A stretch of DNA of 24,507 nucleotides, taken from positions 1 through 24,507 of IMG/VR virus record IMGVR_UViG_3300017658_000245; one strand, written 5' to 3'. Positions within the stretch are counted from its first letter, which is position 1, and the number at the start of each line of letters is the position of its first letter. The stretch is from a virus (lineage: Duplodnaviria; Caudoviricetes). Positions 5,511-24,161 of the stretch are shown piece by piece. The notes below the pieces were generated by a model. It saw nothing but the letters and a program-made list of their open reading frames with translations. It had not been told where the DNA came from and searched no databases. A program made the position numbers and the translations under genes.

Positions 5511-5521
5511 GGGTGAACCAA

Positions 5522-7791: not shown

Positions 7792-7800
7792 GGGCTCACT

Positions 7801-9456: not shown

Positions 9457-9522
9457 GGGAACCGCCATGAAGAGACAGACGGCATCCATGCTGTTTCATG
9501 TCGCTTATAGAAAGATCATTCA

Positions 9523-10149
9523 ATGAATATCGAACGCCGATTTTTGCAGCTCGAAACCCGAGCAGATGAGACTGACAAGAACACCCTGACCGGCTACGCG
9601 GCAGTCTTTCACAAAGATGGGGACGCCGGCACGCAGTTTGATCTGGTTCCGGGGCGGTACATTGAGCGCTTTGCCCCGGGGGCGTTTGATGAGACGTTGA
9701 AAAGCGATGACATCCTGTGCCTGTTCAATCACGAGCGGTCATTCGTTCTGGGACGCAACAAAGCGGGGACGCTGACGCTCTCTGTTGATGCACGCGGTCT
9801 GAAATACAGCTGCGCATTGCCGGATACCAGTTGCGGGCGGGATATGCGGATTTCGCTGGAGCGGCGGGACGTGTCCGGCAGCTCCATTGGTTTCGTGGCG
9901 GAGCAGGTGACCTGGACTGAAGTGGAGGATGGCCCGACGATCCGCCTGATTGAGCGGGCGAAGCTCTTTGATGTGTCTCCCGTGACCTATGCCGCCTACC
10001 AAGGGACAGAAGCCTCTCTGCGTTCAGCGGGGACGCTGGATGACAAGTTGCAGGCGGAGCTGGATGCACTGCATTCGAAAGGTCGGGAACGCCGGGACAG
10101 GATCCGCAAGCTGAAGATCGCAGAACTCCGCCAGAAAATGTGGTGCTGA
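9523..10149 (+). CDS. HK97-family prohead protease
   Basis: LTGYAAVF, ERFAPGAF, LFNH, SGSSIGF, LFDVSPVTYAAY. Confidence 0.95.
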   Translation: MNIERRFLQLETRADETDKNTLTGYAAVFHKDGDAGTQFDLVPGRYIERFAPGAFDETLKSDDILCLFNHERSFVLGRNKAGTLTLSVDARGLKYSCALPDTSCGRDMRISLERRDVSGSSIGFVAEQVTWTEVEDGPTIRLIERAKLFDVSPVTYAAYQGTEASLRSAGTLDDKLQAELDALHSKGRERRDRIRKLKIAELRQKMWC

Positions 10150-10278
10150 ATGGGCAGCAAAAAACCACAGCCAGTTCCCGATCGTGCCAAGCCGCCGCCA
10201 CCTCCGCCGCCACCTCCGCCGCCGAAGAAGAAGAAATGCTACTGCTGCAAATGCTGTTGCAGAGGGTGCTGTGAATGA
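10150..10278 (+). CDS. 42-aa microprotein with poly-Pro, poly-Lys and a Cys-rich tail (not in ORF track)
   Basis: MGSKKPQPVPDRAKPPPPPPPPPPPKKKKCYCCKCCCRGCCE. ATG directly follows the protease stop; its own stop overlaps the next ATG; Pro and Cys codons vary at the third position. Confidence 0.65.
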   Translation: MGSKKPQPVPDRAKPPPPPPPPPPPKKKKCYCCKCCCRGCCE

Positions 10279-10376
10279 ATCGCAAGGCCGAACGCTGGGC
10301 CGCGAAGATCCGGCAGATGCCCCCAGCGGAGCGGAAAGCGGTCATGCTGCGGTTGATCGACGCGATCCGTGGATGA
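10275..10376 (+). CDS. 33-aa amphipathic microprotein (not in ORF track)
   Basis: MNRKAERWAAKIRQMPPAERKAVMLRLIDAIRG. ATGA-coupled to the previous ORF and ends 1 nt from the convergent XRE stop. Confidence 0.5.
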   Translation: MNRKAERWAAKIRQMPPAERKAVMLRLIDAIRG

Positions 10377-10377
10377 C

Positions 10378-10575
10378 CTATCGGAGCTCCGTCACCTGCA
10401 GGCCCAGCACGCTGGCCAGCTTGTCAGCGGTTTCCAGCTTCAGAGAGCGTTCGCCCCTCATGAAATAATCAATCATCTGCGGGCGGATGCCCGCCTGCTG
10501 TGCCAGCCGATAATGAGTCTGGCCCGATTTGGTGATCGCCTTTTTCAGGGCGTCCGTGATGGTGGATTGGCTCAT
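10378..10575 (-). CDS. XRE/Cro-type HTH regulator (65 aa)
   Basis: ITDALKKAITKSGQTHYRLAQQAGIRPQMIDYFMRGERSLKLETADKLASVLGL. ATG 10575 overlaps the upstream stop (ATGA). Confidence 0.88.
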   Translation of the reverse strand: MSQSTITDALKKAITKSGQTHYRLAQQAGIRPQMIDYFMRGERSLKLETADKLASVLGLQVTELR

Positions 10576-10859
10576 TTTCCTGCCTCCAGCAGTTGACGGG
10601 CATTCTCGGGATGGCCATCGAGAAGGGCGCTCAGGGCCGCTTCCAGCGCCTTGACGCGGGAGTCCATGTGTTGCCACATCATTTCCCTCGCCTGCTCCAG
10701 ATTGTCCGCGTAGGCCGCTTCTTCTTCCGCAATGATCCGTTGCTGGTAGGCCTTTTGTTCCGGTGTGGCTTGCAGGATCACGCGACGGCTGCCGGATGCC
10801 TTGGCCAGCCTCGCCTGTTCAAGTTGTTCCGAAGTCAGTTCAAACTTGTCCATGATCAA
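10572..10859 (-). CDS. Putative antitoxin (helical, 95 aa)
   Basis: Coupled directly downstream of the toxin-like gene; helical sequence rich in Glu/Gln/Ala; no DNA-binding motif seen. Confidence 0.55.
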   Translation of the reverse strand: MIMDKFELTSEQLEQARLAKASGSRRVILQATPEQKAYQQRIIAEEEAAYADNLEQAREMMWQHMDSRVKALEAALSALLDGHPENARQLLEAGK

Positions 10860-11095
10860 CGCTCCACTTCAAAGGCTGTGACAGGTTCCAGATAGGTTTC
10901 ATCAATCTGTTCATAAACGCAGAAAATCCAGCGGCCGTCTTCCAATTGTCCCTCTGCGAAATGCCGCCCCGTTTTCCGGGTCAGACCGGTCCGGGCCGGT
11001 TTCATTACAACAGACTCAAATTCATCGGGAGTAATGCCATGCTGGGCGACATGATCAATCGTTTCTTCCGTCCACAGGCAAATGTACCAAGGCAT
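10856..11095 (-). CDS. BrnT/DUF4258-like type II toxin (RelE-like fold)
   Basis: W.EETIDHVAQHGITPDEFESVV...GR..AEG....GRWIFCVYE.....PVTAF; GGGAG RBS. Confidence 0.75.
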   Translation of the reverse strand: MPWYICLWTEETIDHVAQHGITPDEFESVVMKPARTGLTRKTGRHFAEGQLEDGRWIFCVYEQIDETYLEPVTAFEVER

Positions 11096-11124
11096 TTTTC
11101 CGGCTCCCGTTGTGATGGGAATAT

Positions 11125-11162
11125 TCTATCTTATTTGAGACAGATATCTCAAGTGAGATAGA
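11125..11162 (-). promoter_or_regulatory. Sigma70-like promoter overlapped by a 16-bp-arm inverted repeat (operator) for the TA operon
   Basis: Minus strand reads TTGAGA-N18-TAGAAT. Arms TCTATCTTATTTGAGA (11125-11140) and TCTCAAGTGAGATAGA (11147-11162) match at 14 of 16 positions. Confidence 0.75.
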
Positions 11163-11387
11163 GGGAGGTTTCGGGATTTTTGGGAAAAAGAAGGGCTGCC
11201 GGCTCTCTTTCCCCTGGTCAATCACGTTTTTCGCCCCCTCTGCGCACCGCCCCCCGCAGAGGGTGCAAGCGGGTGAAAACGTACAGACGGATTCACCCCG
11301 GTGATGGTTTTGGCCCCCCGTGCAACGGTTTGGAGGCCGCAAGGATGTTTTCGGTGGCGCGGGTGCGCCAGTCCTCATGGAGGGGCA

Positions 11388-12779
11388 ATGGATCCTTTTT
11401 TGGATTTGGATAAAGAGCTGGAGTTTTCTCAGTACGAAGTGCGCAGTCTGATTGAAGGCCGCGTCAAAATTCTGGCGGAGCTGGAAAAACTGGGACCGGG
11501 CGGTAATCTCGCCGATCCGGCTCATGAGCAGCGGTATGACGGGCTGATCGACCGGGCCACGAAGCTGGATGCCTATCTCGATTCTGCCAAGCGTGTCGAG
11601 AAGCGATCCAGCGCACTGGCCGCCCTGCGTGCCAATGGCAACAAAACGACCGGCAGCGGCGTCCCCGCCGTACCTCCGCCGGCCAACTACCGCGCTGCAG
11701 AGCCTGCGGAAGAGCGGGATCTGCTGGAAAATCTGGATGGCGGTAAGCACAAATACAGCATCCTCAAAGCAGTGGAGTGCATCCGTTCGCATCGTCCCGT
11801 GGATGGCCTGGAGGCCGAAGTTTCTCAGGAGATTGAGAAGCGGACCGGCAAGGCGGCCACCGGGTTTTATGTCCCCTGGACACTGCCGATTTATGGCTCC
11901 GCGCCGGAACAGCGGGCCTTTGACTCAACAGCCGGAACGGGACTGATCCCGAAAATTCAGGCCCGGACGCTGGTGGATGTGCTGCGAAACCGCATGGTCA
12001 TGGCCCGCATGGGAGCCACCATCATGAGCGGCATGGTTGGCATCTTCGATCTGCCCAAGAAAACGGCAACCAGCGCTGCCTACTGGGTTGCCGAGGCCGG
12101 TGCCCCCACTGCCAGCAATGTGACGGTCGGTCAGATTGAGTTCACGCCAACCACCGTGGGAGCTTATACAGACGTCACCCGGCGGCTGATCAATCAGTCC
12201 AGCTTTGATGCCGAGAAGATCACCCGCGATGACATTCTGGCTGTGTTGCAGCTGGAACTTGACCGGGTGGGTCTGAACGGCTCCGGCAGCTCGAATCAGC
12301 CCAAAGGAATTTTGCAGGATTCCGGCGTTTCGGCGGTCTCCATCGGGACTGATGGGGGAGCGTTGACATTCGCGAAACTGGTTGAGCTAGAAACAGCCGT
12401 GGCCGCCGCGAATGCCGACCTGGGGACGCTGGGATATGTCACCAGCGCCAAAGGGCGCGGGCAGGCAAAGACAATCAAGAAGGATGCCGGCTCTGGCATT
12501 TTCCTGTGGGAAAATGATGAGATGAACGGCTACCGGGCGATGGCCTCGAACCAGATCCCCAGCGACCTCGAAAAAGGGGACGGGGAAAATCTGACGGCGG
12601 TCATCTTCGGGAACTTCGCCGATGCCGTGTATGCCATGTGGGGCGGGATCGACATGAACATTGATCCGTATTCGCTCTCCACCAGCGGCGGCGTGCGGAT
12701 TGTGATGCTGGCGGATTGCCAGTTCAAACTCCGCCGAACGGAATCGTTCGCGAAGATTGTCGATGCCGCCACGACATGA
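11388..12779 (+). CDS. HK97-fold major capsid protein
   Basis: ATG 11388 follows GGAGGGG. N-terminal coiled-coil delta domain, G.LIP, AYWVAE, G.GSSNQPKGIL, IFGNF, IDPYS. Confidence 0.95.
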   Translation: MDPFLDLDKELEFSQYEVRSLIEGRVKILAELEKLGPGGNLADPAHEQRYDGLIDRATKLDAYLDSAKRVEKRSSALAALRANGNKTTGSGVPAVPPPANYRAAEPAEERDLLENLDGGKHKYSILKAVECIRSHRPVDGLEAEVSQEIEKRTGKAATGFYVPWTLPIYGSAPEQRAFDSTAGTGLIPKIQARTLVDVLRNRMVMARMGATIMSGMVGIFDLPKKTATSAAYWVAEAGAPTASNVTVGQIEFTPTTVGAYTDVTRRLINQSSFDAEKITRDDILAVLQLELDRVGLNGSGSSNQPKGILQDSGVSAVSIGTDGGALTFAKLVELETAVAAANADLGTLGYVTSAKGRGQAKTIKKDAGSGIFLWENDEMNGYRAMASNQIPSDLEKGDGENLTAVIFGNFADAVYAMWGGIDMNIDPYSLSTSGGVRIVMLADCQFKLRRTESFAKIVDAATT

Positions 12780-12794
12780 TGAGGATGAACCTGA

Positions 12795-12831
12795 CGGCGG
12801 GGGCTGCGGGCCGGCCCCCGCCGGTTTTTTT
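12795..12831 (+). terminator. Intrinsic terminator after the capsid gene
   Basis: CGGCGGGGGCTG / CGGCCCCCGCCG stem followed by G and T7. Confidence 0.85.
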
Positions 12832-12881
12832 CGGCCCCTGAATCCACGAAACATTTCTGTATTAACAAATGTGAGGCCCAC

Positions 12882-13295
12882 ATGAGTGCTGCCCTGGTCA
12901 CTGTCACGCTGCTGATGGGAATGCTGATCGGAACTCGCTGGATGAAGCCGGGCGAGACGATCGACATGGAAGAGGACTACGCCAAAGAACTGGCTGCCAT
13001 GAAACCGCCTCGGGTACAGATTGGCGGGACCGTTCCGCAAGCTGCTCTCCCCGCTGATCATGACAAGTCCGGATCCGAGATGGAATCTGATCCAGATGCG
13101 GAATCCGACAGCCAGTCGGACAATTCTCTGGAAACATTCGGGTTTGCCGGGAAAACCCTGCACCTGTTGCAGGCGGCGGGCATCAGCACTGTGACGCAGC
13201 TCCGAGAAACTATTGACGCTGGCACCAAGATCGAAGGTGTGGGCGAAAAGACTCTGGCCAGCATCCAGGCGCAGCTGGAAGCGGCTGCCGAATAG
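12882..13295 (+). CDS. Post-capsid protein with a C-terminal helix-hairpin-helix (RNAP alpha-CTD-like) domain
   Basis: GAGG RBS. Small N-terminal domain (KPGETIDMEEDYAKEL), acidic linker, then GKTLHLLQAAGISTVTQL...KIEGVGEKTLASI. Confidence 0.65.
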   Translation: MSAALVTVTLLMGMLIGTRWMKPGETIDMEEDYAKELAAMKPPRVQIGGTVPQAALPADHDKSGSEMESDPDAESDSQSDNSLETFGFAGKTLHLLQAAGISTVTQLRETIDAGTKIEGVGEKTLASIQAQLEAAAE

Positions 13296-13298
13296 TTT

Positions 13299-13389
13299 GA
13301 CGGCGGGAGCGCCCCCGGTGTTCCGGGCGCGGCAGCAACGGCGTACACCGGCGCGAGACGCTGCCGCCCCGCTGGTCTTTTATTTTTTT
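13299..13389 (+). ncRNA. Candidate structured RNA element: three-way junction with complementary loops and a U-rich tail
   Basis: P1 13302-07/13368-73; P2 13309-14/13325-30; P3 13331-36/13360-65; loop CCGGTGT (13315-21) is complementary to ACACCGG (13345-51). Confidence 0.45.
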
Positions 13390-13399
13390 GAGGATTTGC

Positions 13400-14005
13400 A
13401 TGGCCTCGCTGGTTGTCTTAACTCCGCCGCCGCTGCCGCTCTCCGCTGCCGACATCCGCGCTCAGTGCCGGATTGACGACAACGGAGAGGATGCATTGCT
13501 GGAAGAGTACATCGCAGCGGCGTCACGCGAAGCCGAAGAGATCACCGGCCGTCCGGTGGGGGAAACGGTCTATCAATTGCGGCTGAACCGTTTCCCCCTT
13601 GACGGAGATCCGATCCTGCTGCCCCGCCCACGTGCGGTCACAGTGGAATCGGTCACGTATACCGATCAATCTGGAGAGTCACAGGAGCTGCCGGCCGAGT
13701 CACGGCAGGATGACCTGTTCAGCGAGCCGGCGCGGATTTATCCCGCCGTTGAATCACAGTGGCCGGAGACGTTGGCCGGGGCCATTAATGTCGTCGTGAT
13801 CACTTTCACGGCTGGCGCTGAGATCGTTGACCCCTTGTTTCTGCAGGCCATTCGGCTGGCAGTCGGGGACTGGTACGAGCACCGGGAAAGCACAGTCGAC
13901 GGCAAGCTCACCCAGCTGCCGAGCCTGCCCAACGGGTTCGATCGATTGCTGAGAACACTTCGATTCCGCTCTCGCGAGCTGGAACGTTTTTTGATGGATC
14001 ACTGA
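13400..14005 (+). CDS. Head-tail connector (HK97 gp6 / SPP1 gp15-like, long form)
   Basis: GAGGA RBS; PLSAADIRAQCRID...EDALLEEYIAAA...AEEITGR...FTAG...QAIRLAVGDWYEHRE. Confidence 0.92.
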   Translation: MASLVVLTPPPLPLSAADIRAQCRIDDNGEDALLEEYIAAASREAEEITGRPVGETVYQLRLNRFPLDGDPILLPRPRAVTVESVTYTDQSGESQELPAESRQDDLFSEPARIYPAVESQWPETLAGAINVVVITFTAGAEIVDPLFLQAIRLAVGDWYEHRESTVDGKLTQLPSLPNGFDRLLRTLRFRSRELERFLMDH

Positions 14006-14016
14006 GGAATTGAGAC

Positions 14017-14241
14017 ATGGGACATTGGCTGCTGCCCTGGCTAATTGGGCTGAGACCGAAGGCGAAACCGACGCCAAAACCGTGCGAGCATCCCATCGAA
14101 TATGTTCGGAGGATGCCAGTTAATCCGCCCGTGCGCGATGAACTCAGGGCAACCGACTGGCAGGAATGCACGAAGTGCGGCATGCAGCGGCTGATCCATC
14201 ACATTGCCGAAGACTGGCAGGTTCCTCGAGTCACACCCTGA
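14017..14241 (+). CDS. Small zinc-ribbon-like protein
   Basis: GAGGA RBS; CEH...ECTKCG ligand pattern after a short hydrophobic N-terminus. Confidence 0.6.
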   Translation: MGHWLLPWLIGLRPKAKPTPKPCEHPIEYVRRMPVNPPVRDELRATDWQECTKCGMQRLIHHIAEDWQVPRVTP

Positions 14242-14290
14242 CTCAGTCACGCTCTTTCCTGACCTCTTTCCCCTTTCCCCTCTCTACCTC

Positions 14291-14638
14291 ATGTCTGCCG
14301 GTCAGTACCGTTATCGCATCCGTATTGAGGCTCCCACGCGCACCGTCAATCCTGACGGGCAGACGGTGACAGTCTGGCCGTCCGAACACGATGCCCCCTT
14401 TCTCGCGCTCTGGGCAAACTACTTCATCAGTAGCGGAGACCAAGGGGAGCATCACAAACAGCAGCAGACGCAGGTGAATGCGATCTTCCGCGTCCGCAGC
14501 ACACCGGCAGCCAGGTCAGTCACGCCAGGAATGCGGGTCCGGTTTCGTGGTCAGATCTATGAGATCGCCACGGCGGAGGACATTGACGGACGTAACCGGG
14601 AAGTTGTGATTCAGACGACAGGGACTCGCGCAGCATGA
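14291..14638 (+). CDS. Head closure / head-tail adaptor (SPP1 gp16-like)
   Basis: MSAGQYRYRIRIE...DGQ...W...LWA...FRVR...PGMRVRFRGQIYEI...DIDGRNRE. Confidence 0.88.
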   Translation: MSAGQYRYRIRIEAPTRTVNPDGQTVTVWPSEHDAPFLALWANYFISSGDQGEHHKQQQTQVNAIFRVRSTPAARSVTPGMRVRFRGQIYEIATAEDIDGRNREVVIQTTGTRAA

Positions 14639-15054
14639 ATATTCAGGCGGCAATTCGTTCTCTGCTGGTGGCTCATGAGGAGATCAGCGATCTGGTGGGG
14701 GATCAGGTTCGTCCCGACAAGTTGTCAGAAAAAGACTCTCTGGCGATTCGTCCGGCCATCATCCTGGAGCTAGGGACGTTCAGCGATCTGGCCGACCTGA
14801 GTGGAACCAGCAGCAATGAAGCCGATGGCACCGTGCTGATTATCTGCTGTGCCCACACCCGGGCGGAAGCGGGAGAGGTAGAAGCCACTGTGAAATCTGT
14901 CCTGGATGGTTATCGCGGCGGCAGTTCCGGGCTGTCGTTGGAAGCCTGCAAATATCAATCGACCAGTTACGAGCATGAACCACCGGATGAAGATTCTGAT
15001 TCAAAAGACTGGTATTTAAACGTGGCGACGTATTACGTGTTCGCGCGGGCTTGA
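14635..15054 (+). CDS. Tail terminator-like protein (DUF3168-like)
   Basis: IQAAIRSLL.....LVGDQVRP.....PAII...VKSVLDGY; lies just before the tail tube gene. Confidence 0.78.
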   Translation: MNIQAAIRSLLVAHEEISDLVGDQVRPDKLSEKDSLAIRPAIILELGTFSDLADLSGTSSNEADGTVLIICCAHTRAEAGEVEATVKSVLDGYRGGSSGLSLEACKYQSTSYEHEPPDEDSDSKDWYLNVATYYVFARA

Positions 15055-15079
15055 AGTTGATCAAAACAGGGGGCATGAC

Positions 15080-15538
15080 ATGACAAAATATCCAAGTATC
15101 GGAACGCTGATTCAGACGGCAATCTCCAGCGTGCTGGTAACCGTGGCAGGCGTGACGGCGATCAACTTCCCGGACGGCGAAGTCCTGTTCTGGGACGCCA
15201 CGGCGCTTGACTCCACGTACGTGGAAGATGGCGAACTCGCGGGGTTGTCGACAACCGGGGAATGCTCCGGCGACGGGTTCTACGATCCGGCCGACACGGT
15301 GCAGATCGCGCTGTTCGGTGATCTCACCAGTGGCGGTGCTTACCGCGACTGGGCGATTGTGCGACCGGCTGCCGACCCGGAAGACCCTCCCGTTCCGGTC
15401 TGTTCTTTCAATGGCTCGATTAAAAAGTTCACGCCGAAAGCGGCCGTTAAAGACGGTCTCAAAATCGACTGGGCCGTGAAGCTCCGCACGATCGCGGAAT
15501 ATAGCGACGGCACTGAAGAAGGCGGCGGAGAAACCTGA
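15080..15538 (+). CDS. Major tail tube protein
   Basis: 152 aa acidic beta protein: GT.I...V.GVT.I..P......D.T.LDS...E...GL...GE.S..G.YDP...F.G.I; synteny agrees. Confidence 0.8.
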   Translation: MTKYPSIGTLIQTAISSVLVTVAGVTAINFPDGEVLFWDATALDSTYVEDGELAGLSTTGECSGDGFYDPADTVQIALFGDLTSGGAYRDWAIVRPAADPEDPPVPVCSFNGSIKKFTPKAAVKDGLKIDWAVKLRTIAEYSDGTEEGGGET

Positions 15539-15552
15539 GACACCTTTCGCGA

Positions 15553-15592
15553 TGGCCGGCAGCCCCGTCAGCAATGACGGGGCTGCCGGCCA
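15553..15592. terminator. Perfect 18-bp hairpin with a GCAA tetraloop (terminator or mRNA 3' stabiliser)
   Basis: TGGCCGGCAGCCCCGTCA-GCAA-TGACGGGGCTGCCGGCCA; only a weak U tract follows. Confidence 0.6.
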
Positions 15593-15634
15593 GTGAGTTT
15601 AGTTTCGGCAACACCTTTAATTCAGGAATCGACC

Positions 15635-15964
15635 ATGCCGCCCATTAAAAATGATTACCGCGTCCGCCTGATTAAAGACTGCCGGGCGATCAACCCTGAG
15701 TTCAATCCATTACAGGAAGTTGGACCGCAGAATCCTCGGTTTGTGACGTTCAAAGCGGGCCGGGAACTCTCTGGTCCCCATGCGTGGCTGCTCTGCCGGC
15801 CGGACGCTTACTTCGATGACGTGAAGGCCGAGCCTCTGGACGATTTCACGCGCGCCCGCGTGGAGCGCGAGGAACGTCGTTCCGCCGCGATCCTGGCCGC
15901 CCGCGAAAAACGCCTGCAGGCCGAAGCGGCGATGAAAGCTGCCAAGAAACGTCGTAACCGCTAA
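15635..15964 (+). CDS. Hypothetical protein with a basic helical C-terminus
   Basis: ATG 15635 follows AGGA; 109 aa. Confidence 0.65.
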   Translation: MPPIKNDYRVRLIKDCRAINPEFNPLQEVGPQNPRFVTFKAGRELSGPHAWLLCRPDAYFDDVKAEPLDDFTRARVEREERRSAAILAAREKRLQAEAAMKAAKKRRNR

Positions 15965-16063
15965 TACACCCGGCGCACCTCTCCCCAGGCCGATCACGTC
16001 TTGACCTGGGCGACGTGCATCAAGGCCGGGTCTTTCTCCCTCTTCTTTTCTCTGGAATTCCTC

Positions 16064-16441
16064 ATGGCTGTCACTCGTGAAAAACTGCTGGCATTCGGCA
16101 AAAAACGTCGATTCGAAACTGTTTCCATTCCAGGCCTGGGCGACGTACGGATTCGATCGCTCAAGGAACTCGAGCGCTCCCAATTTGAGCGGGACTATCA
16201 GGGGACTGACAATCCCGATCGACAGCTGGAGGGAAAACGGGCACTGATTGCAGCCTGCGTGTGCAATGAGGACGGGGAACCGCTCCTGACCGCTGCTGAC
16301 ATTGCCGAGTTGGCAGAGCATGACGGCGCCTTCACCGGGTTTCTGTTCGATAAGTGCTGGAAGCTGTGTGGGTTTTCCCGACTCGACATTGAAAGCATCG
16401 TGGGAAACTTACAGATGACCCCCGCCGCCGATTCGCCGTAA
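16064..16441 (+). CDS. Tail assembly chaperone (lambda gpG-like)
   Basis: MAVTREKLL...ETVSIPGLGDVRIRSL...ER..FE...LIAACVCNEDGEPL; slippery GGGAAAC near the 3' end. Confidence 0.88.
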   Translation: MAVTREKLLAFGKKRRFETVSIPGLGDVRIRSLKELERSQFERDYQGTDNPDRQLEGKRALIAACVCNEDGEPLLTAADIAELAEHDGAFTGFLFDKCWKLCGFSRLDIESIVGNLQMTPAADSP

Positions 16442-16776
16442 CACTGGCCCGTACGTTTGGACGCTGGGACATTGATCAGTTCCTGAGTGAGATCGAACCG
16501 TACCAGTTTGATGAATGGTATGCCGCCTATCTGCTCTCTCCCTGGGGAGAAGAGCGGGAAGACTGGCGACTGGGCATGCTGGCCTGTGCGATGGAGACGC
16601 TGTTTTGCGCACATGCGGGCGTTGATCCCAGCTGGGATCTGGGGGATTTTCGATATGGATCGAACGACGACCCGGAAGATGATCCCGATTTTGATCCACT
16701 GGCAAAAGATGCACAACCGGCAGAAATGCAGATTGCCATTTTGCAGCAGGTGGCTGCGCGGCACCGGGGGCGATGA
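16402..16776 (+). CDS. -1 frameshift extension of the tail chaperone (gpT / DUF4035-like), giving a gpGT fusion 16064..16776
   Basis: G GGA AAC at 16402-16408. The -1 frame is open to 16776: LTDDPRRRFAVTLARTFGRWDIDQFLSEIEPYQFDEWYAAYLLSPWGEEREDWRLGMLA... Confidence 0.88.
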   Translation, partial: GKLTDDPRRRFAVTLARTFGRWDIDQFLSEIEPYQFDEWYAAYLLSPWGEEREDWRLGMLACAMETLFCAHAGVDPSWDLGDFRYGSNDDPEDDPDFDPLAKDAQPAEMQIAILQQVAARHRGR

Positions 16777-17309
16777 TGCAGGGCATGGAAGAGCTGGAAG
16801 CGGCCATCCACGATCTGGCGAATGAGTTTCCCAGACAGGTTTCCACCGCGTCCGTGAATGCGGCCTTGGGAGTGATGGTCCGTGCTCTGCAAAGGGCGGC
16901 CCCCACGGGCAAGACGGGAAAACTCCGCCGCTCTCCCGGAAAGACCGTGAAACGCCGATCCGATGGAGCGGCGGGGAAAGCCGGGTTTGATGTGGGACAG
17001 AGTGCGGCCACGAAAGATGTGCGCGGACCTCATGCGCATCTCTACTATCTTGGCACACAGAAACGCTATCGGACCGGCTCCAAGGGGAAACCGCCCAAAG
17101 GGATCGGCGGGCGGTATCGGCCTGTTGAAATGCTGATCCGGCGCGGGGTCTATGCGCCGGATGTGGCGAAATACAAACGCCGAACCGGTTCGGCGCCGGC
17201 TCATTCTGGAATGGCTTCCGTGCTGAATGCCGCTGTGCCCGACGCGATGCAGGCGATGGTGAATGTTGCGGAAAAGAAGCTACAGGATCTGACGGAACGG
17301 GGGAAATGA
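16773..17309 (+). CDS. HK97 gp10-like tail completion/neck protein
   Basis: MQGMEELEAAIHDL...AAPTGKTGKLRRS...GPHAHLYYLGT; basic protein. Confidence 0.7.
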   Translation: MMQGMEELEAAIHDLANEFPRQVSTASVNAALGVMVRALQRAAPTGKTGKLRRSPGKTVKRRSDGAAGKAGFDVGQSAATKDVRGPHAHLYYLGTQKRYRTGSKGKPPKGIGGRYRPVEMLIRRGVYAPDVAKYKRRTGSAPAHSGMASVLNAAVPDAMQAMVNVAEKKLQDLTERGK

Positions 17310-17312
17310 AGC

Positions 17313-19202
17313 ATGGCCACGATCGGGGACCTGGTTGTCAAACTCCGTCTGTCAAATGGGACGTTCCGCCAGAACATGCAGGATGCGGGCCGTCAGGCCC
17401 AACAGCTCGATTACGACATCGTGAAGCTCGAACGCTCCACGTTGCTGGCAGAGGACTCCACGGCCCGCCTGGGACGGGCGATGGCTTCGCCGATTTATCG
17501 GGCGCAGCAATGGGCCACTGCGCAGGCGAAATCCAATCAATCCGTGATGCAGGCCCGGGCCGCCAATGATCAGCTGGCTGCCGGCCTCGCCAACTCGACA
17601 GTGCAGACCAATCTGGCCACGCAGGCCAGCTTGAAGCTGGACCGGGAAATCATGGAGACCCAGCAGCAAACCAAGCTGCTGGCCGCCACGCAGGCCGATG
17701 CATCGATGCAGGCCAAACAGCTCGCGCTGTCCGAGGCCCAGGCGGCGCAGGCACTGGTTCAGACAAAATCTGCCACCGCGCAGCTGGCAATATCCGCAAA
17801 GAGTGCCGCAATAGCCGAAAGCAATCTGGCCATGGCAGCAGAGCAGATGCTGCAACGCTCGCTGCAGGCGGCGCAAGCACAGCAACAGTTGGCCACAGCT
17901 ACAGAACATTTTGGGAGAACAGCCACAGTCAGTGCAGCCACGATGCGCCGGTATCGGAGTGAATTTGCCAAGGGGGCTGCCGCAACGGCTGGGCTTGGCA
18001 TGTCGAGTGGCAAGGCTCAGCTGGCAATTTCTCAACTGATCTTTGCTGTGGATGATGCATCTACAGTGTATGGCACTGCTGGACTTTCCGGCGCTGTGCG
18101 TGCTGCGGGGAACAATCTGACGATGTTCGCCAGCCTGCTGGGTGGACCATATGCGCTCGCCGCTGCCGTGGCACTTTCCGCTGGCATGCAGCTCTATTTG
18201 ACGTTCACTAAAGAAGCGAAAGCCGCTGATAATGAGACAGAAGCAATTAAACGGCAGATTGCCGCGCTGAGAGAACGTGCGCATCTCTTGGGTGTTTCCA
18301 CGACTTCCGACAAGGCAAACAAAAATGTCGATGAGCTGCGATCCGAACTGCGTGAAATCGAGATCCAGAAAAAGCTGCTGCAACAACAACAGTCAGACGC
18401 ACAGAATAAGTCCCGCATGGCTCACATCGCTGACAAAGCCACTTATTGGAACTATGTGTCTGGCGGTATTAATTCTCAGCAATACATGTTCGCCCGGGCT
18501 CACAAAGATGAAATCGCCGAAGCTGTCCGACAGAGGGACCTTGCCAAAGCTGCCGCACAGGAATTGATTGTTGTTGCCGAGCGTCAATCACAAGCTGAGG
18601 CCCATATTAACGCACTGCTCAAACAGCGATCTTCTCTCTACAAGAGGGAAACCGGCGGAGCCATTGCCGAACTGACTCGTCAGCAATTGGAATTCAATGC
18701 GCAGAATGACGCGAGGCGAGCCGAAGAGCAGAAAAAACAATCAGAGACTGAACAGCAAGCCAAGATCTCCGTAATGAGGTGGGGGTTTGATCAACAGCGT
18801 GAACGCTTCCGGGAGATTCGACCAGATCTTGCCCAAAAAATGGATGTTGCAGATCAATATCGCGAGCGCATGACACAGCTAAATGCTGTGGGTTTGGCAA
18901 TGCCGAAAGCGATGCGTGATCAGATTGCAAACGGTTTCTTGGGTTCCGCATTGCAGCAGATGAAAAAATTAAGTGTTTCCGACCCAGCGCGCGGACCAGC
19001 CGGTCTTGAGCAGGGCAGTCGGGAATCGCTGGAGCGGATCCGTCAGCGTGATCTTGAGCGATCCGCACCAAAGCAGACTCAGGAACAGTTGCTGCAAGAG
19101 CTCGTTAAGTTGATTAAAGCATCCAGCACAATCGAGAAGACGCAAAATGAAACGCTGTCGAAAATCCTCATAAAACAGCCTACGGCATCTGATCTTCGCT
19201 GA
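17313..19202 (+). CDS. Tape measure protein (629 aa)
   Basis: MATIGDLVVKL start, Ala/Gln-rich helical body, central hydrophobic Gly/Ala segment; follows the chaperones. Confidence 0.85.
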   Translation: MATIGDLVVKLRLSNGTFRQNMQDAGRQAQQLDYDIVKLERSTLLAEDSTARLGRAMASPIYRAQQWATAQAKSNQSVMQARAANDQLAAGLANSTVQTNLATQASLKLDREIMETQQQTKLLAATQADASMQAKQLALSEAQAAQALVQTKSATAQLAISAKSAAIAESNLAMAAEQMLQRSLQAAQAQQQLATATEHFGRTATVSAATMRRYRSEFAKGAAATAGLGMSSGKAQLAISQLIFAVDDASTVYGTAGLSGAVRAAGNNLTMFASLLGGPYALAAAVALSAGMQLYLTFTKEAKAADNETEAIKRQIAALRERAHLLGVSTTSDKANKNVDELRSELREIEIQKKLLQQQQSDAQNKSRMAHIADKATYWNYVSGGINSQQYMFARAHKDEIAEAVRQRDLAKAAAQELIVVAERQSQAEAHINALLKQRSSLYKRETGGAIAELTRQQLEFNAQNDARRAEEQKKQSETEQQAKISVMRWGFDQQRERFREIRPDLAQKMDVADQYRERMTQLNAVGLAMPKAMRDQIANGFLGSALQQMKKLSVSDPARGPAGLEQGSRESLERIRQRDLERSAPKQTQEQLLQELVKLIKASSTIEKTQNETLSKILIKQPTASDLR

Positions 19203-19216
19203 CATTCTCGCTCTCC

Positions 19217-19250
19217 GCGCACCGCGACGACTCGGGGGCGGAGGGAATCG
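19217..19250 (+). promoter_or_regulatory. GCGCACCGC-N12-GCGGAGGGAATCG element (copy before the tail-tip genes)
   Basis: Identical boxes and spacing to 22573-22606; both start 36 nt before an ATG. Confidence 0.6.
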
Positions 19251-19252
19251 TT

Positions 19253-20206
19253 ATGGCAGTTGTTGGAACTCCCCGGGAAGTCTCGGGACGGCCGGGGGGC
19301 ATGGTCGGGACGCTCGATTCTCGGACCGCACAGCGGACGTGGAACATCACCGTCAATTCTACGGCGGATGATGCGTTCACCATTCACGCGTCCGTTGGCG
19401 GGCTGTTGCCGGGTCTGTTCGCCTCGCATCCACAGAATCTTTTTTTTACGTGCCGAAGCCTCCGCTACGAAGAGACTGACAGCCGGTTTCACTGGCGGGC
19501 AATCGCCGATTATTCCTGTTCGCCACTGAGCAGAGAAGAAGAAGAGCGGGCCACCACGCCCAACCCGATGGATCGAGCGTTGCGGGTGGAAGTGGATTCT
19601 GTGGAGTTCGAGAGATACGCCACGAAAGACATCAATGGCTATGGTCTGGTCAATTCGGCGAACGATCCCTACTCCGCGCAGGCGGTGGAAGATTCCCGCA
19701 CGGTACTGATGATCGAGCGGAATATTGCAAACTGGTCCGGTGGCTGGGAGCTGATCAACAATACGCTGAATTCCGGTGCCGTCACGTTCACGGATGGCGT
19801 CACATCGCGCACGGTTCCTGCTGGATGTGGATACATCAAGCGCATTCGGAGAAGCTCGCTCCGAAAAGAAAACGGCTACGTGTTCTATATCGCCAGCGCC
19901 GAAGTGCATGTCAAAAGCGATGGTGAAGAATGGCGGATGCACCTGCTGGATGAAGGCTATTACCACTTGCAAACTGATGCCGGAAAGCAGAAGAAATCCT
20001 ATATCAAGGTCTGGGACGATGAGACCAAAGCGGCGGTGAACACTCCCACGGAGCAGCTCCTGGACGGCACTGGCCATATTCTTGACGATACCGATAGTGA
20101 TGGGGTGGTGGATTTTGGAAGCACGGGCACCAAGCACGATCCCGTTTTCATCGACTTTGACATGATCAGGGAAGCGGACTGGTCCAGCCTCCCGTTCTTC
20201 TCCTGA
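19253..20206 (+). CDS. Putative distal tail / tail-tip protein
   Basis: First gene after the tape measure; beta-rich, 317 aa; GGAGGG RBS. Assignment by synteny. Confidence 0.6.
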   Translation: MAVVGTPREVSGRPGGMVGTLDSRTAQRTWNITVNSTADDAFTIHASVGGLLPGLFASHPQNLFFTCRSLRYEETDSRFHWRAIADYSCSPLSREEEERATTPNPMDRALRVEVDSVEFERYATKDINGYGLVNSANDPYSAQAVEDSRTVLMIERNIANWSGGWELINNTLNSGAVTFTDGVTSRTVPAGCGYIKRIRRSSLRKENGYVFYIASAEVHVKSDGEEWRMHLLDEGYYHLQTDAGKQKKSYIKVWDDETKAAVNTPTEQLLDGTGHILDDTDSDGVVDFGSTGTKHDPVFIDFDMIREADWSSLPFFS

Positions 20207-20227
20207 CCTCTTTCCTCTACCTGTAAC

Positions 20228-20701
20228 ATGTCCGGAATCATCCTCACCCAATCCGCCGCTGATCGTCTCCGGCGCCAATTGCGGGACACTGAACGCAGGC
20301 CAGTGAGCAAGCTGCCGAGGCTGGGGCGGAAGTACCGGAGCGTCTCTGTTCAGGAAAAGTGCCCGGAGGTCGATGTCTTGACCTTGTTCGGCCCCATTAC
20401 CGGCGGAACGGTGAAGTTGCGTTATCGGCTTCAAGATGTCACAGCTGATGCCGTGCTGGACTGGGATACAGACGCAGATACGGCGCAAGCCACGCTCATT
20501 TCATCGCATTCAAAAATCAATTCTGGCGATGTCTTCGTGGTCGGTGGACCCTGGCCGACTGTCTCGCTGCACATTATCTGGGATGGCCAGTACAAGGGGA
20601 AATATGTTTTTTTCCCGGCTGTAATCCCCGACTTAACCGGCGGGGGAACGTGCAATTTCTGGAAGGCGTCTTCCTCAAACTGGAGAGGTTACTACTCCTG
20701 A
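20228..20701 (+). CDS. Putative tail-tip protein
   Basis: 157 aa; TGGT..L.Y.....T.....D.....Q..L......V.V.GGPWP....I.W.G beta module; TGATG-coupled to the next gene. Confidence 0.55.
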   Translation: MSGIILTQSAADRLRRQLRDTERRPVSKLPRLGRKYRSVSVQEKCPEVDVLTLFGPITGGTVKLRYRLQDVTADAVLDWDTDADTAQATLISSHSKINSGDVFVVGGPWPTVSLHIIWDGQYKGKYVFFPAVIPDLTGGGTCNFWKASSSNWRGYYS

Positions 20702-21963
20702 TGTGCTGTCCATCCACCGCAATCATGCCCAAGTGGGCCTCGCTGTTTAAAGTTCGCCTGTCCGATGGCGCGGTGATCTGGTGGTCAGCCAAGGGCAGAA
20801 TGGCCAATGGCGCACTAATTAGAGATTATACATTCCGGACAATGTCCGTTGTCGTGTCTGGAGATCTGGTCTATGAAATTGGTGGCACTTTTTATCCAAC
20901 GGGACCGCAGCGATCTTTTGCCGTTCGGGACGACATGGGGCCAACGTATGATTCTTTTTACGACTCCATCGCGCCGGATATCGAGCACCAAGCGAACTTC
21001 ACACACGGCATCTTAAATTCGTCCGGCGATCATATTTGGATGCCATCCCCTCTGATGGTGCATCGAGTCGAGGCCAACAGCGGAAAATGTGTCTTTGAAA
21101 AAAGTATCGACTCCTCATTCGTTGCCAATATTGGCGACGGAAACACGCCATACCTGAAAGAGAGCAACCCCGAACGATGGGTGGCATCGGCGCCCTCTGA
21201 TGGATTCGTGAACTGGGACAACAACTCACTAATGGTGAGGAGTTATGACAATAGTGGATCCAGCCGAGGAACTCTGTCAGGTGTCCGGTGGTTTTGCGAT
21301 CATGATGCGGATCATTTCATCTGCGTTCGACAGGCGACATCTCCGCTGGTTGAAAAACGCCTCAAAATCAATCCGGCGGGGTCTCCTACCGACACCTTTC
21401 CGGGATTGAGCGTCTACATCCCCGACAAACTCTCCTCGAACGGAAAGAATGTCTCTTTCACGAGAAATGGAACTGCCTTCGTACTGAATGAAGACTTTGA
21501 TGTCATCGTCGAAAGCGGAGATCCGACATTTTCAATGACTGGAGGCGGGTCAAATCCTTACCTCACAGCAACGGGAACGGATGGGATCTACCTGCTGTTC
21601 AACAAATACAGCAGCTATTCCGATGGAAAGCTGCTGATTCGAAAACTGACTGATGACGGCTTGGCATGGTCGAAAACGCTCAACACTGTCGATGTTTCAA
21701 ATACTTTCTACTATGTCACTCGCGTTATTGAGCGTGATGACGTGGTGTATCTCTCAGGTTGGTGGAAAGATGCTGATTCCGGAAAGATCATGAATCTGGC
21801 AGCACTGGACGCAGAGACGGGTGATGTCATCTGGCAACGGCAGCTTGTAAAGCTGACCTCAGAGTCTCTGGGCGGAGCGACCATCAATAGCCCGGGACTG
21901 CACTTCACATTTAAGGGGGAGTTCCTGTTTCTGGCCTGCAACGGCACCGTGAAAATTGGCTGA
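20701..21963 (+). CDS. PQQ-type beta-propeller protein, candidate receptor-binding protein
   Basis: ATG 20701 overlaps the upstream stop. Blade motifs LFKVRLSDGAVIW, VHRVEANSGKCVF, LAALDAETGDVIWQ. Begins MCC. Confidence 0.65.
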   Translation: MCCPSTAIMPKWASLFKVRLSDGAVIWWSAKGRMANGALIRDYTFRTMSVVVSGDLVYEIGGTFYPTGPQRSFAVRDDMGPTYDSFYDSIAPDIEHQANFTHGILNSSGDHIWMPSPLMVHRVEANSGKCVFEKSIDSSFVANIGDGNTPYLKESNPERWVASAPSDGFVNWDNNSLMVRSYDNSGSSRGTLSGVRWFCDHDADHFICVRQATSPLVEKRLKINPAGSPTDTFPGLSVYIPDKLSSNGKNVSFTRNGTAFVLNEDFDVIVESGDPTFSMTGGGSNPYLTATGTDGIYLLFNKYSSYSDGKLLIRKLTDDGLAWSKTLNTVDVSNTFYYVTRVIERDDVVYLSGWWKDADSGKIMNLAALDAETGDVIWQRQLVKLTSESLGGATINSPGLHFTFKGEFLFLACNGTVKIG

Positions 21964-22269
21964 TCACCCATCCCAGCCGGGGAGTTCCTGGAACTCGTCC
22001 CAGCTGATTTCTTTGCCGGGCAGGGCGGGCAACTGGCGGGACTGGTGAAACCGACCGATTAATCGGCCCTGGGGAGTCCGGCCCAGGCCGGCAGCGCCGA
22101 ACTCTGCCGAAAGCTGCTTTCGGATCTTTTTCGCCGCTCGCTGAAATCGGCTGAGCCTGCGAATGCGGACTTCGAGCCGCTGCAGTTTGCGGAACAGCGC
22201 ATCGGCATCATCACTGAGCTGAATCAATGCCCCGGCGGGAATGACGGCAGTCTTACGTGGTTGGGCCAT
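21964..22269 (-). CDS. Hypothetical basic coiled-coil protein
   Basis: ATG 22269 follows GGAAAGGG; 101 aa; abuts the convergent propeller gene. Confidence 0.55.
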   Translation of the reverse strand: MAQPRKTAVIPAGALIQLSDDADALFRKLQRLEVRIRRLSRFQRAAKKIRKQLSAEFGAAGLGRTPQGRLIGRFHQSRQLPALPGKEISWDEFQELPGWDG

Positions 22270-22477
22270 GAGATGCCCTTTCCATTCGCAGGATTTCATC
22301 GCGGGCAATGGACTTGAGCGTCAGCCAATCCTCTTTGAGCTCGGATCGTGCCGGCGCATTCACAAAGCGGGCCATGGCCCAGTTCAGCGCGCGGCGACGG
22401 GCAGCGAGGTCCAGCGTCTCCAGCGCGGCGGCAATCTCTCGCATGGCGGCAATTTCAACGGCAGTCTGCTCTTCCAT
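22253..22477 (-). CDS. Hypothetical helical protein (74 aa)
   Basis: GGGAGGG RBS; EIAAMREIAAALETLDLAARRRALNW helical hairpin. Confidence 0.65.
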   Translation of the reverse strand: MEEQTAVEIAAMREIAAALETLDLAARRRALNWAMARFVNAPARSELKEDWLTLKSIARDEILRMERASHGPTT

Positions 22478-22572
22478 GATCTTCCCTCCCTGGTCTGTCA
22501 CGGACACCGCCATTCTATGCGGAGTTCATCTGTCCCGGTAACCCCTCTTCTCCCCGCCCGTGTGCAGCCCCG

Positions 22573-22606
22573 GCGCACCGCCGCTGCCCCCCTGCGGAGG
22601 GAATCG
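22573..22606 (+). promoter_or_regulatory. GCGCACCGC-N12-GCGGAGGGAATCG element (copy before the metallopeptidase gene)
   Basis: Matches 19217-19250 in both boxes and spacing. Confidence 0.6.
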
Positions 22607-22608
22607 CG

Positions 22609-23250
22609 ATGGGAAGCCGGGGGAGAAAGTCAGGCAGGGGCGGAGTCAGCGGCAAGGGGCCGCATCATGTCACCGTCACGAAACAGGAGATCGAGGCCCG
22701 CATCACTAAGGAGATGAAGCGGGTGCCGTCGCCGCTCCGATCGATGCTGGCGAAGCATGATGTTCACCCGAAGGTGATCACGTTTGATGAAGCCAGACGA
22801 ATTGACTCGACGATCACCAGCAAGACGCGCGGCTTTCTGAATCCCAGTGCGGATCCCAAGAAGCGGGGCGCCTTTGTGATCATTGACAGGTTTCAGCACC
22901 GGCGGGGAGCGAAGAACGCCGCCATGACTGCTCTGCATGAGCAGGGGCACGCCCTGGACCAGCTGAAAGGAAAGGTGGGAGAACCGATCTCATCCAGCAA
23001 GGCATTCAAGGCAGCCATGAAAAAGGATCGCCAGCAGCAGAAAAAATTAAAATTCCCGGCAGAGAAACTTAATAATCTGAATTACACTCATTACAAGAAA
23101 GCGAACCGTCCCCGGGAACTTGCCGCGGAGGGATTCGCCACGATCTATGGTTCCGGGCGCCCCGCCAACGTGCAGGGAGCCAATAAAACAGCGGATTTCA
23201 AAAAAGCATGGCCAAACGTGATCGACGTCTTAAAGGCTGCCTTGAAGTAG
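22609..23250 (+). CDS. Anthrax-lethal-factor-like HExxH zinc metallopeptidase with an N-terminal MGSRG Gly/Arg tail
   Basis: ALHEQGHALD, ISSSKAF, Y...RELAAEGFA, KKAWP; very basic; begins MGSRGRKSGRGGVSGKG. Confidence 0.8.
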   Translation: MGSRGRKSGRGGVSGKGPHHVTVTKQEIEARITKEMKRVPSPLRSMLAKHDVHPKVITFDEARRIDSTITSKTRGFLNPSADPKKRGAFVIIDRFQHRRGAKNAAMTALHEQGHALDQLKGKVGEPISSSKAFKAAMKKDRQQQKKLKFPAEKLNNLNYTHYKKANRPRELAAEGFATIYGSGRPANVQGANKTADFKKAWPNVIDVLKAALK

Positions 23251-23267
23251 GCCCTCCCTATATCCGA

Positions 23268-23507
23268 ATGACACTCTGGCTCTGCCAGGATGGGACAATT
23301 GAATTCATGGGGAGCCAGGTCACTCCCTCCGGTCTGCTGTGTGATCTGGGAGGCCCGATCTGTCCGAACGATAACACGAACCTCGATGGCCTGTGCTACG
23401 AAGATTTCCGCGCGTTTCTGGACCAGTGCGGACTGAAAGCCCCCACGATTGAGATCCACAATGGAAAGATCGCCCTCCAGTCGAATGACCTGGATGATGA
23501 CGACTGA
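23268..23507 (+). CDS. Small acidic protein, candidate immunity/inhibitor partner
   Basis: 79 aa, Asp/Glu-rich, ends DLDDDD; starts 17 nt after the peptidase stop. Confidence 0.55.
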   Translation: MTLWLCQDGTIEFMGSQVTPSGLLCDLGGPICPNDNTNLDGLCYEDFRAFLDQCGLKAPTIEIHNGKIALQSNDLDDDD

Positions 23508-23510
23508 AGG

Positions 23511-24161
23511 TCAGCCGGATGCCTGCATTCTTCTCCGAGGTGACCACGCCGGCACAGTCACATAGCGCGGACCGGCGGGCAGTTTCTTAAGCAAACTTTC
23601 TTCAGCACCATAGAGCAGCACGGCGGATGGCTGGAGTTGCTCGATCCCTCTTCGCAGCCCCTTGAGCAGCAAGGCGGAATCTTTGAATCGCGGCCGGCAT
23701 TCACAGGCGAACGGGCTGCCAGTGTGCAGCCCACTTGTCATTTGCTGAACCGTCTGCCGGTTCCAAGCCAGCTGCGGGAGAACAGTTCTCCCCTGGCTTT
23801 GCCACCAGCGGGCCACCCAGCGGGACCGGTACAGATTACAGATTGCCACGGCAAACGGATGATCGCTGTACGCGCTAAAATCGGGTTCAATCAACACCAC
23901 ATCCGTGCCAAGCCGGGAGAGCGAAGCGGCAGGCCGTTCCCAGAGTGGTTCGAGCCGATAGTCATCCACCCAGAATCCGACCAGAGAACCGGCCCGAGGT
24001 TTCAGCGTGCGGTCGATCACCAGTGAACCCGGCCCCGAGTCTTCCGCCCGCAATGCCAGCCGGTCCGGCAATGTCACATCCTGCGCGAGCAACTGCGGAA
24101 TGCCCAGGTCATTCGTACTGGGGAAGACGGGACGGGTGGCGAGCGTCCAGCGTGTTTTCAT
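23511..24161 (-). CDS. DUF4417 domain protein
   Basis: NDLGIPQL...FWVDDYRLEPLWERP...IEPDFSAYSDHP....CNLYRSRW...WWQSQG..VLPQLAW...P..VLLYG. ATG 24161 follows AAGG. Confidence 0.88.
   Translation of the reverse strand: MKTRWTLATRPVFPSTNDLGIPQLLAQDVTLPDRLALRAEDSGPGSLVIDRTLKPRAGSLVGFWVDDYRLEPLWERPAASLSRLGTDVVLIEPDFSAYSDHPFAVAICNLYRSRWVARWWQSQGRTVLPQLAWNRQTVQQMTSGLHTGSPFACECRPRFKDSALLLKGLRRGIEQLQPSAVLLYGAEESLLKKLPAGPRYVTVPAWSPRRRMQASG

Follow-up and report, generated by a model that had tools for sequence, protein, structure and literature searches.

In Cap10, a protein with the TGT fold, the active site accommodates the N-terminus of CdnD, which is Gly-rich and bears a deazaguanine, according to the relevant passages of bioRxiv 10.1101/2025.04.06.647259 and PMC13376578. 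The same preprint passages report removal of Met1 from CdnD and propose that Cap10 attaches CdnD to a target (bioRxiv 2025.04.06.647259). For DpdA, the active-site passages of PMC10164549 assign Asp95 to acid/base catalysis, Phe99 to stacking, Asp130 to base reading and Asp256 to nucleophilic attack. MuF, polyvalent and terminase-adjacent effectors are described in PMC3482391, PMC5512222, PMC9503650, PMC7824862 and PMC5712189, and the main-text passages of these papers mention no N-terminal Gly-(Gly/Ser)-Arg-Gly tag or TGT-like partner of the kind analyzed here. DUF4417 is a common family without an assigned function. The term occurs in PMC5478533 and PMC8066415, and the relevant part of a ParB survey notes phage ParB-DUF4417 fusions and gives no function. 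Our literature search, which covered the main texts of openly available papers, returned no description of a tag-DUF4417 pairing.

We analyzed a 24,507-nt stretch of viral DNA (IMG/VR record IMGVR_UViG_3300017658_000245; hereafter the window), in which a DUF4417 gene converges on a tagged peptidase gene and a small acidic ORF.

A three-gene module at the right end of an HK97-like prophage

Gene content identifies the window as an HK97-like prophage: genes for HNH, terminase subunits, portal, prohead protease, capsid, connector and tail extend from 4459 to ~21963 by Pfam and PHROG matches, and this head-tail cluster puts the module at the prophage right end (Table 1). The contig runs past the window into chromosomal-looking genes (L167), from which we presume a planctomycete host. 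Some 15 kb separate the module from the terminase, and the module includes no ParB domain. NCBIfam gave no useful match for 11 proteins, including flanking genes and the ORF at 19253.

Table 1. Features of the module and its surroundings in the window.
Feature	Position	Strand	Basis or remark
HK97-like head, connector and tail gene cluster	5513..21963	+	Pfam and PHROG matches
Small ORF divergent from the peptidase gene	22253..22513	-	Similar frame at the same place in L168
Translation-initiation leader with GGAGGG	22573..22608	+	Common to the tail-cluster ORF at 19253
MGSRG tag (Gly2-Ser3-Arg4-Gly5)	22609..22623	+	Followed by a low-confidence, likely flexible linker to ~residue 20
Basic, tagged zinc metallopeptidase, lethal-factor/PPEP-like (ATLF), 213 aa	22609..23250	+	Profile, fold, catalytic residues
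Candidate inhibitor: small acidic ORF of 79 aa (pI 4.05)	23268..23507	+	17 nt after the peptidase ORF
DUF4417 (PF14386, E 1.4e-29), 216 aa, predicted TGT-superfamily barrel	24161-23511	-	Pfam, model

All features of the arrangement set out in the preliminary description, namely a tagged basic HExxH ORF, an acidic ORF and, 3 nt from the end of the latter, the end of a convergent DUF4417 gene, are present, and the peptidase ORF is the single ATG-started MG[GS][RK][GN] frame in the window. Relative to a paralogous locus (L168), synonymous/non-synonymous codon changes in the three ORFs number 52/22, 24/19 and 51/16; since synonymous changes predominate in each, all three behave as genes. Contigs from four public DNA runs (two samples, one of them possibly the origin of the window) covering 19000-24507 support the assembly and contain both paralogues. 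A site-specific inversion behind the orientation was considered and rejected, as these contigs contain no joint or inversion and no notable inverted repeat flanks the module.

The leader said to be common to the peptidase gene and a tail gene is real. The leaders of the ORFs at 22609 and 19253 match at 73% over 40 nt, and their 29/39 identical positions rank at the top of 253 leader pairs, with the next best pair at 22. The ORF at 19253, inside the tail cluster, has no Pfam, PHROG or NCBIfam match. Promoter and terminator scans gave chance-level results, and a Shine-Dalgarno-occluding hairpin in the leader was discarded as unconvincing (z-scores of -0.66, -0.37, -1.89, -1.97 and +0.41 for five leaders). 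A second common leader, pyrimidine-rich (TCCTGACCTCTTTCC...), occurs at 14257-14290 and 20201-20227, in front of the head-closure gene and of the ORF at 20228; no clear Shine-Dalgarno sequence is seen at either. Elsewhere in the window, a permuted papain-like (Peptidase_C92-like) ORF below the Pfam cut-off lies upstream of the packaging genes (1634-2206), and the stretch of ~1.1 kb that separates the prohead protease gene from the capsid gene (10150-11300) is free of long + strand ORFs, a possible break or insertion.

The tagged ORF is a predicted lethal-factor-like protease

The peptidase ORF starts MGSRGRKSGRGGVSGKG, has a pI of 10.6 and carries HEQGH at residues 110-114. Its predicted model (pLDDT 91 overall) consists of the tag and one domain, with residues 1-20 at pLDDT 54. 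All five positions of the catalytic set (H110, E111, H114, Y159 and E170) are present; in a 30-sequence alignment, H110, E111, H114 and E170 are invariant and Y159 is conserved in at least 90%. The peptidase itself returned no Pfam match at E 0.01, no PHROG match and no MuF match. A four-sequence profile found 59 relatives, of which 20 of the 37 scanned match ATLF at E 0.001 or better and one, distant (P0052), is fused to MuF. The profile of the 30-sequence alignment (A7), which takes in ATLF-positive relatives, matched PPEP-1 at E 3.6e-8 and lethal factor (LF) at E 1.3e-7. The top rows of a Foldseek search with the model were all LF or PPEP, at E 1.6e-3 or weaker and probability 1.00. With zinc motif, profile and fold all matching LF/PPEP, the original assignment stands: by sequence and model, the protein belongs with the ATLF, or lethal-factor-like, metallopeptidases and is a predicted protease.

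Eleven relatives matched at E 1e-10 or better, two of them already in the query. Among the other nine, five start MGGRG, one starts MGRGR and three are N-terminally short; the strict tag recurs in one of the remaining 48, so the tag marks this peptidase clade and not ATLF proteins generally. Conservation is limited to G-(G/S)-R-G, and the resemblance to histone tails pointed out earlier is incidental; histone-tail mimicry was ruled out because the residues beyond position 5 vary. Neither the peptidase nor the portal, used as query, found relatives in viral scans, and sequence shuffles and permuted patterns were therefore used as controls for the tag in place of matched prophages.

DUF4417 is predicted to adopt a TGT-superfamily-type barrel

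The DUF4417 model, built from a 104-sequence alignment, has a pLDDT of 94.5. In a structure search of 48,161 chains, its four best matches all belong to the TGT superfamily (rmsd 3.5-4.1, 164-183 aligned residues), and a transglycosylase-like barrel is what the preliminary description had named as support for its reading. The Z score was 10.8 for arcTGT (rmsd 4.1, 183 aligned), 10.3 for QTRT2, 10.2 for DpdA and 8.9 for TGT; a second structure comparison put DpdA first (Z 10.7, rmsd 3.4, 165 aligned). Foldseek, the check originally put forward, gave no E below 0.001. Cap10 itself is not among the matches listed in these searches. Profile comparison of DUF4417 with five TGTs gave no match (probability 0.13), nor did a PDB sequence search with the DUF4417 profile, and Atlas searches returned DUF4417 clusters only. 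DUF4417 is predicted, with a moderate fold match, to be a TIM barrel of the TGT-superfamily type.

The nucleophilic Asp of TGT (D280) and DpdA (D256) is not conserved in DUF4417, in a register taken from alignment end points only. These pair TGT 281 with model residue 204 and TGT 282 with 205, placing the nucleophile at ~203-204, where 94 of 99 sequences have V/I/L in column 203 and 15 of 99 have Asp in column 204. A barrel lacking this residue is unlikely to carry out ordinary base exchange, and the known covalent chemistry cannot apply. D94 is found in 90 of 104 sequences (Asn in 14) and an aromatic residue or His at 98 in 99 of 104; by motif spacing, judged by eye, D94-x3-Y98 fits the acid/base site of DpdA (D95/F99). 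Position 132, by eye the likely equivalent of the base-reading TGT D156/DpdA D130, is S/N/Q/T. The most conserved acids are the near-invariant D66 (101/104) and the invariant D67 (104/104), for which we know of no catalytic counterpart in TGT; S96 is also conserved. QueC (PF06508) was absent from 48 of the 49 DUF4417-bearing records searched; the single match was partial (74/210 positions) and is the only one among the near-complete records (1/33). None of the 32 window ORFs scanned is a QueC. The missing TGT nucleophile together with the missing QueC indicates that DUF4417 is neither DpdA nor CBASS Cap10.

DUF4417 is linked to tagged ORFs with variable effector-type cargoes

DUF4417 matched 556 times in genomes (~760 genome stretches estimated). 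Among the best 80 of these 556 matches, an ATG-started MG[GS]RG ORF lies within 4 kb of DUF4417 in 69 loci and directly adjacent in 61. In 61 of the 80 loci, the distance from the DUF4417 stop to the tag start is between -70 and +100 nt, and 16 of 77 genome tags are not adjacent to DUF4417. First-order Markov shuffles gave 1/240, and each of five permuted patterns gave 0/80. Reciprocally, a DNA pattern for one tag subtype selected 121 viral loci, 80 with full flanks. DUF4417 is present in 70 of the 73 that have at least 1 kb upstream, and in 101 of all 121. The genome and viral locus sets are related, not independent, and relatedness inflates both counts. The linkage to MG(G/S)RG ORFs put forward in the preliminary description proved to be far above chance in each direction.

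The strict tag is not universal. It occurs in 7 of 25 metagenome loci, many on short contigs; a first viral set mostly carries MGRN(S/A)GG in its place; and no tag was recognized at loci L085 or L004. At the latter, a 131-aa protamine-like ORF stands behind DUF4417. Tags of the G[GS]RG form accompany D94 in 72 of 72 rows and occur in 0 of 14 rows of the N94 clade, which has other tags; on a quick tree this D94/N94 split is a single evolutionary event.

Broader tag patterns collected 245 distinct tagged ORFs, which fall into 62 cargo clusters, a few of them chance ORFs. Pfam names were obtained for 7 of 48 cargo representatives (ADP-ribosyltransferase, Gln_amidase, PBECR2, Ntox50 and ART-PolyVal), all effector-type, and none of the 48 is a nucleotidyltransferase. 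The cargoes, among them ADP-ribosyltransferases, a papain-fold toxin, RNase folds and the window peptidase, are unrelated to one another, in line with the variable C-terminal domains proposed at the outset, and pI exceeds 9 in 191 of 223 tagged proteins. The tagged ORFs share with polymorphic toxin systems a conserved N-terminus followed by a variable C-terminal effector.

Several loci deserve separate mention. The tagged ORFs of L170, L171, L172 and L176 are only 46-52 aa long and Gly/Lys/Arg-rich, with no room for an enzyme domain. In L257, one DUF4417 gene sits amid four tagged genes, whose cargoes are ART-PolyVal-like, PBECR2, Ntox50 and one without a name. A tagged cargo at L005:4569-4874 has no Pfam match at E 0.001 and contains a DGRHR motif, which we take to be ParB-like. 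In Mycobacterium phage Larenn (NC_028877.1; L081:1327-2340), the gene after DUF4417 is annotated from 1615; read instead from the in-frame ATG at 1327, which lies within the 3' end of DUF4417, it would give a 337-aa protein starting MGKRGG. Misannotated starts of this kind may hide the tag in cluster A phages.

The tag persists through changes of gene order

The tag is on the DUF4417 strand in 77 of 77 cases of the genome set and 101 of 101 of the tag-selected set. The window DUF4417 belongs to a supported nine-member clade of the quick tree, in which the tag lies as far as 0.9 kb from the DUF4417 stop, either upstream or on the other strand. Its gene orders are convergent (the window and L168), divergent (L001, with a 39% identical peptidase and its own acidic ORF) and tag-first (L003, with an ADP-ribosyltransferase cargo). 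The linkage, noted at first for the window to persist despite opposite orientation, is thus kept in three gene orders other than the usual one. The tag persists in them without DUF4417 overlap or co-transcription, so that the peptide, and not the gene overlap, is conserved and under selection.

Two loci of this group carry signs of rearrangement. L168:3877-6240, beside tRNA-His, is a degenerate paralogue of the module with DUF4417 cut at ~residue 65. Upstream of its peptidase gene, on the same strand, the 3' part of another DUF4417 survives, compatible with the usual order; the window, unlike L168, has no such remnant upstream of the peptidase. In the contig of L002 and L003 (G007), DUF4417 forms a 785-nt direct repeat, 95.5% identical, at both ends of 44 kb; one copy adjoins tRNA-Phe, and a single tagged gene, with an ART cargo, was found in the contig.

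Small acidic ORFs are enriched behind tagged genes

Of 59 tagged genes, 26 have a small acidic ORF behind them, compared with 28 of 383 other genes; two cargo families weigh heavily in this enrichment. The window ORF matches its L001 counterpart at E 0.012 only and has no family, and an Atlas search returned nothing for it. From its position, its charge and this enrichment, the acidic ORF likely keeps the peptidase quiet in the producing cell.

The pair is carried by phages and by elements without detected capsid genes

Phage records matching DUF4417 number 508, among them streptococcal phages and mycobacteriophages of clusters A and L. Many phages have the pair immediately in front of terminase, portal or minor capsid genes, often with DUF4417 fused to ParB, and portals of the HK97, lambda and SPP1 types are all seen alongside it. 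For six chromosomal loci of Chloroflexota and Actinomycetota, the flanks were scanned to 20 kb on either side at E 1e-10, using the first 450 residues of 78 of their 100 largest ORFs. The scan turned up coupling protein, relaxase, primase-polymerase and recombinases; none of the 78 ORFs was a capsid, portal or terminase. On a Rubrobacter plasmid, tag and DUF4417 adjoin a replication-relaxation gene. In a plasmid collection, DUF4417 occurs in 9 of 72,556 records, none typed as conjugative. Nine Chloroflexota loci (L195, L197, L199, L201, L218, L220, L223, L234 and L270) encode tagged proteins of ~680-980 aa, some beside a coupling protein or relaxase; the L223 protein, scanned whole, has no Pfam or NCBIfam match. 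The supposition that the effector is packaged and injected by a phage was consequently too narrow: it accommodates the phage carriers and leaves out the elements without detected capsid genes.

Discussion

By comparative sequence evidence, the tag and DUF4417 form a well-supported genetic system that lies outside every family tested; its mechanism is a proposal. We tentatively suggest, at somewhat short of an even chance, that DUF4417 reads the N-terminal tag and tethers a swappable basic cargo to the DNA of the mobile element. The barrel would likely bind the N-terminal Gly-(Gly/Ser)-Arg-Gly of the cargo, here the predicted zinc protease. By the general rule of N-terminal processing, Met1 is removed before Gly2, and such removal would expose Gly2 of the tag. 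The former base pocket (D94 and the aromatic residue at 98) would be filled by the tag Arg, in place of the deazaguanine read by Cap10. Tethered covalently or non-covalently, the cargo would likely travel with the genome into the next cell, with the acidic ORF likely silencing the protease in the cell that produces it. DNA as the common vehicle is suggested by the presence of the pair on both phages and relaxase-bearing elements. In an unlikely, more radical version, DUF4417 would excise a base of the element DNA and the tag, through the Gly2 amine or the Arg guanidinium, would take its place, so that the protein is written into DNA. Against a DNA tether we counted the distance of the window module from the terminase and its missing ParB domain, the incomplete spread of the strict tag among metagenome loci and in the MGRN(S/A)GG set, the unmatched TGT profiles with a weak Foldseek result and a moderate fold match, and the scarcity of DUF4417 on plasmids, none of them typed as conjugative.

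Other readings draw on parts of the same evidence. DUF4417 might bind or modify the tag inside the producing cell and so switch the cargo on or off, for defence or addiction and with no delivery. We consider this somewhat unlikely, though Cap10 gating CdnD is a precedent, the cargoes are toxin-type with acidic partners, the window module sits in a moron-like position at the prophage end, and elements without detected capsid genes also carry it. It is hard to square with the many phages that have the module directly before terminase, portal or minor capsid genes, and with basic tagged peptides too short for an enzyme. In the passages of PMC5712189 on phage L5, moreover, gene 1 starts the rightward late transcript; we match this gene by inference to the cluster A DUF4417. 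The gene neighbourhood in phages and the small basic cargoes would equally suit a capsid-targeting sequence, with DUF4417 as a head-loading adaptor. T4 internal proteins carry such a sequence, and the prohead protease removes it inside the head. Capsid targeting is distinctly unlikely here, given that HK97-, lambda- and SPP1-type portals all co-occur with the pair and that the same pair rides on apparently capsid-less elements with a relaxase or coupling protein, a distribution that favours a DNA tether.

We think it quite improbable that DUF4417 serves the element as a glycosylase or other DNA-modifying enzyme, with the tagged protein as co-substrate or regulator and the cargo domain hitchhiking. 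The TGT/DpdA-like fold, the conserved D66, D67, D94 and S96, and the frequent ParB fusion, reminiscent of the NTPase partner that DpdA needs, speak for it; the TGT position lacks a nucleophile, QueC is nearly always missing, and the strong diversification of the cargo would be left unexplained. Very improbable is a tag that arose as a by-product of gene overlap or recombination at the DUF4417 3' end and has no function in the protein. The tight spacing between tag start and DUF4417 stop in most genome loci is what such a by-product would leave; the window clade keeps its tag on the opposite strand or well upstream, a fifth or so of genome tags (16/77) are non-adjacent, and the five closest independent full-length peptidase relatives are all tagged.

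If DUF4417 does tether tagged proteins to DNA, a tag reader of this kind would account for the arrival of effectors in a new cell together with incoming DNA and would make a useful reagent; the base-replacing version would make it a genetically encoded protein-to-DNA ligase. G-(G/S)-R-G proteins would then pass through a phage portal or a conjugation pore, a delivery route common to phages and conjugative elements. The four-residue tag predicts effectors across more than fifty cargo clusters and offers a way to harvest new anti-host or anti-defence proteins. To this, the window locus adds a lethal-factor-like protease clade as cargo and a tag kept through changes of gene order.

Comparison with known systems

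The window peptidase has the fold and the HExxH, Tyr and Glu set of PPEP-1/2/3 and of the anthrax lethal factor catalytic domain (ATLF, PF07737). Unlike these, it is very basic and has neither a signal peptide nor a protective-antigen-binding domain, and nothing points to a eukaryotic target. The cargo types found behind the tag (lethal-factor-like peptidase, ART, papain-fold toxin, Ntox50 and PBECR) are those of MuF polymorphic toxins and polyvalent proteins, which in the passages describing them are likewise encoded near phage terminase and portal genes and on conjugative elements. In contrast to those proteins, the trafficking determinant here would be a four-residue tag with a separate barrel protein, in place of a MuF domain or a polyprotein of several domains.

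DpdA and the TGTs (PDB 7ui4, 1iq8 and 3unt) are the best structural matches of DUF4417, with Z of 8.9-10.8. Going by the published passages on DpdA and TGT, some DUF4417 relatives share the partnership with an NTPase, and D94 with the aromatic residue at 98 would, by spacing, correspond to the Asp and aromatic pair of the acid/base site. DUF4417 differs in being a 216-aa minimal barrel in which the Asp256/Asp280 nucleophile is not conserved, with no sequence-profile match and no 7-deazaguanine pathway alongside.

By analogy, Cap10 is the closest working analogue of DUF4417. In type IV CBASS, as set out in the passages on Cap10-CdnD, a TGT-fold protein likewise works with a partner whose N-terminus is Gly-rich, M(G/S)G(G/S)GG in CdnD. 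Cap10 reads a deazaguanine added by the QueC-like Cap9 and keeps its nucleophile, D248, whereas nearly all DUF4417 records searched are without QueC and the corresponding position is not Asp. The DUF4417 tag, for its part, has an invariant-like Arg, its cargo is swappable and not a CD-NTase, and its carrier is a mobile element.
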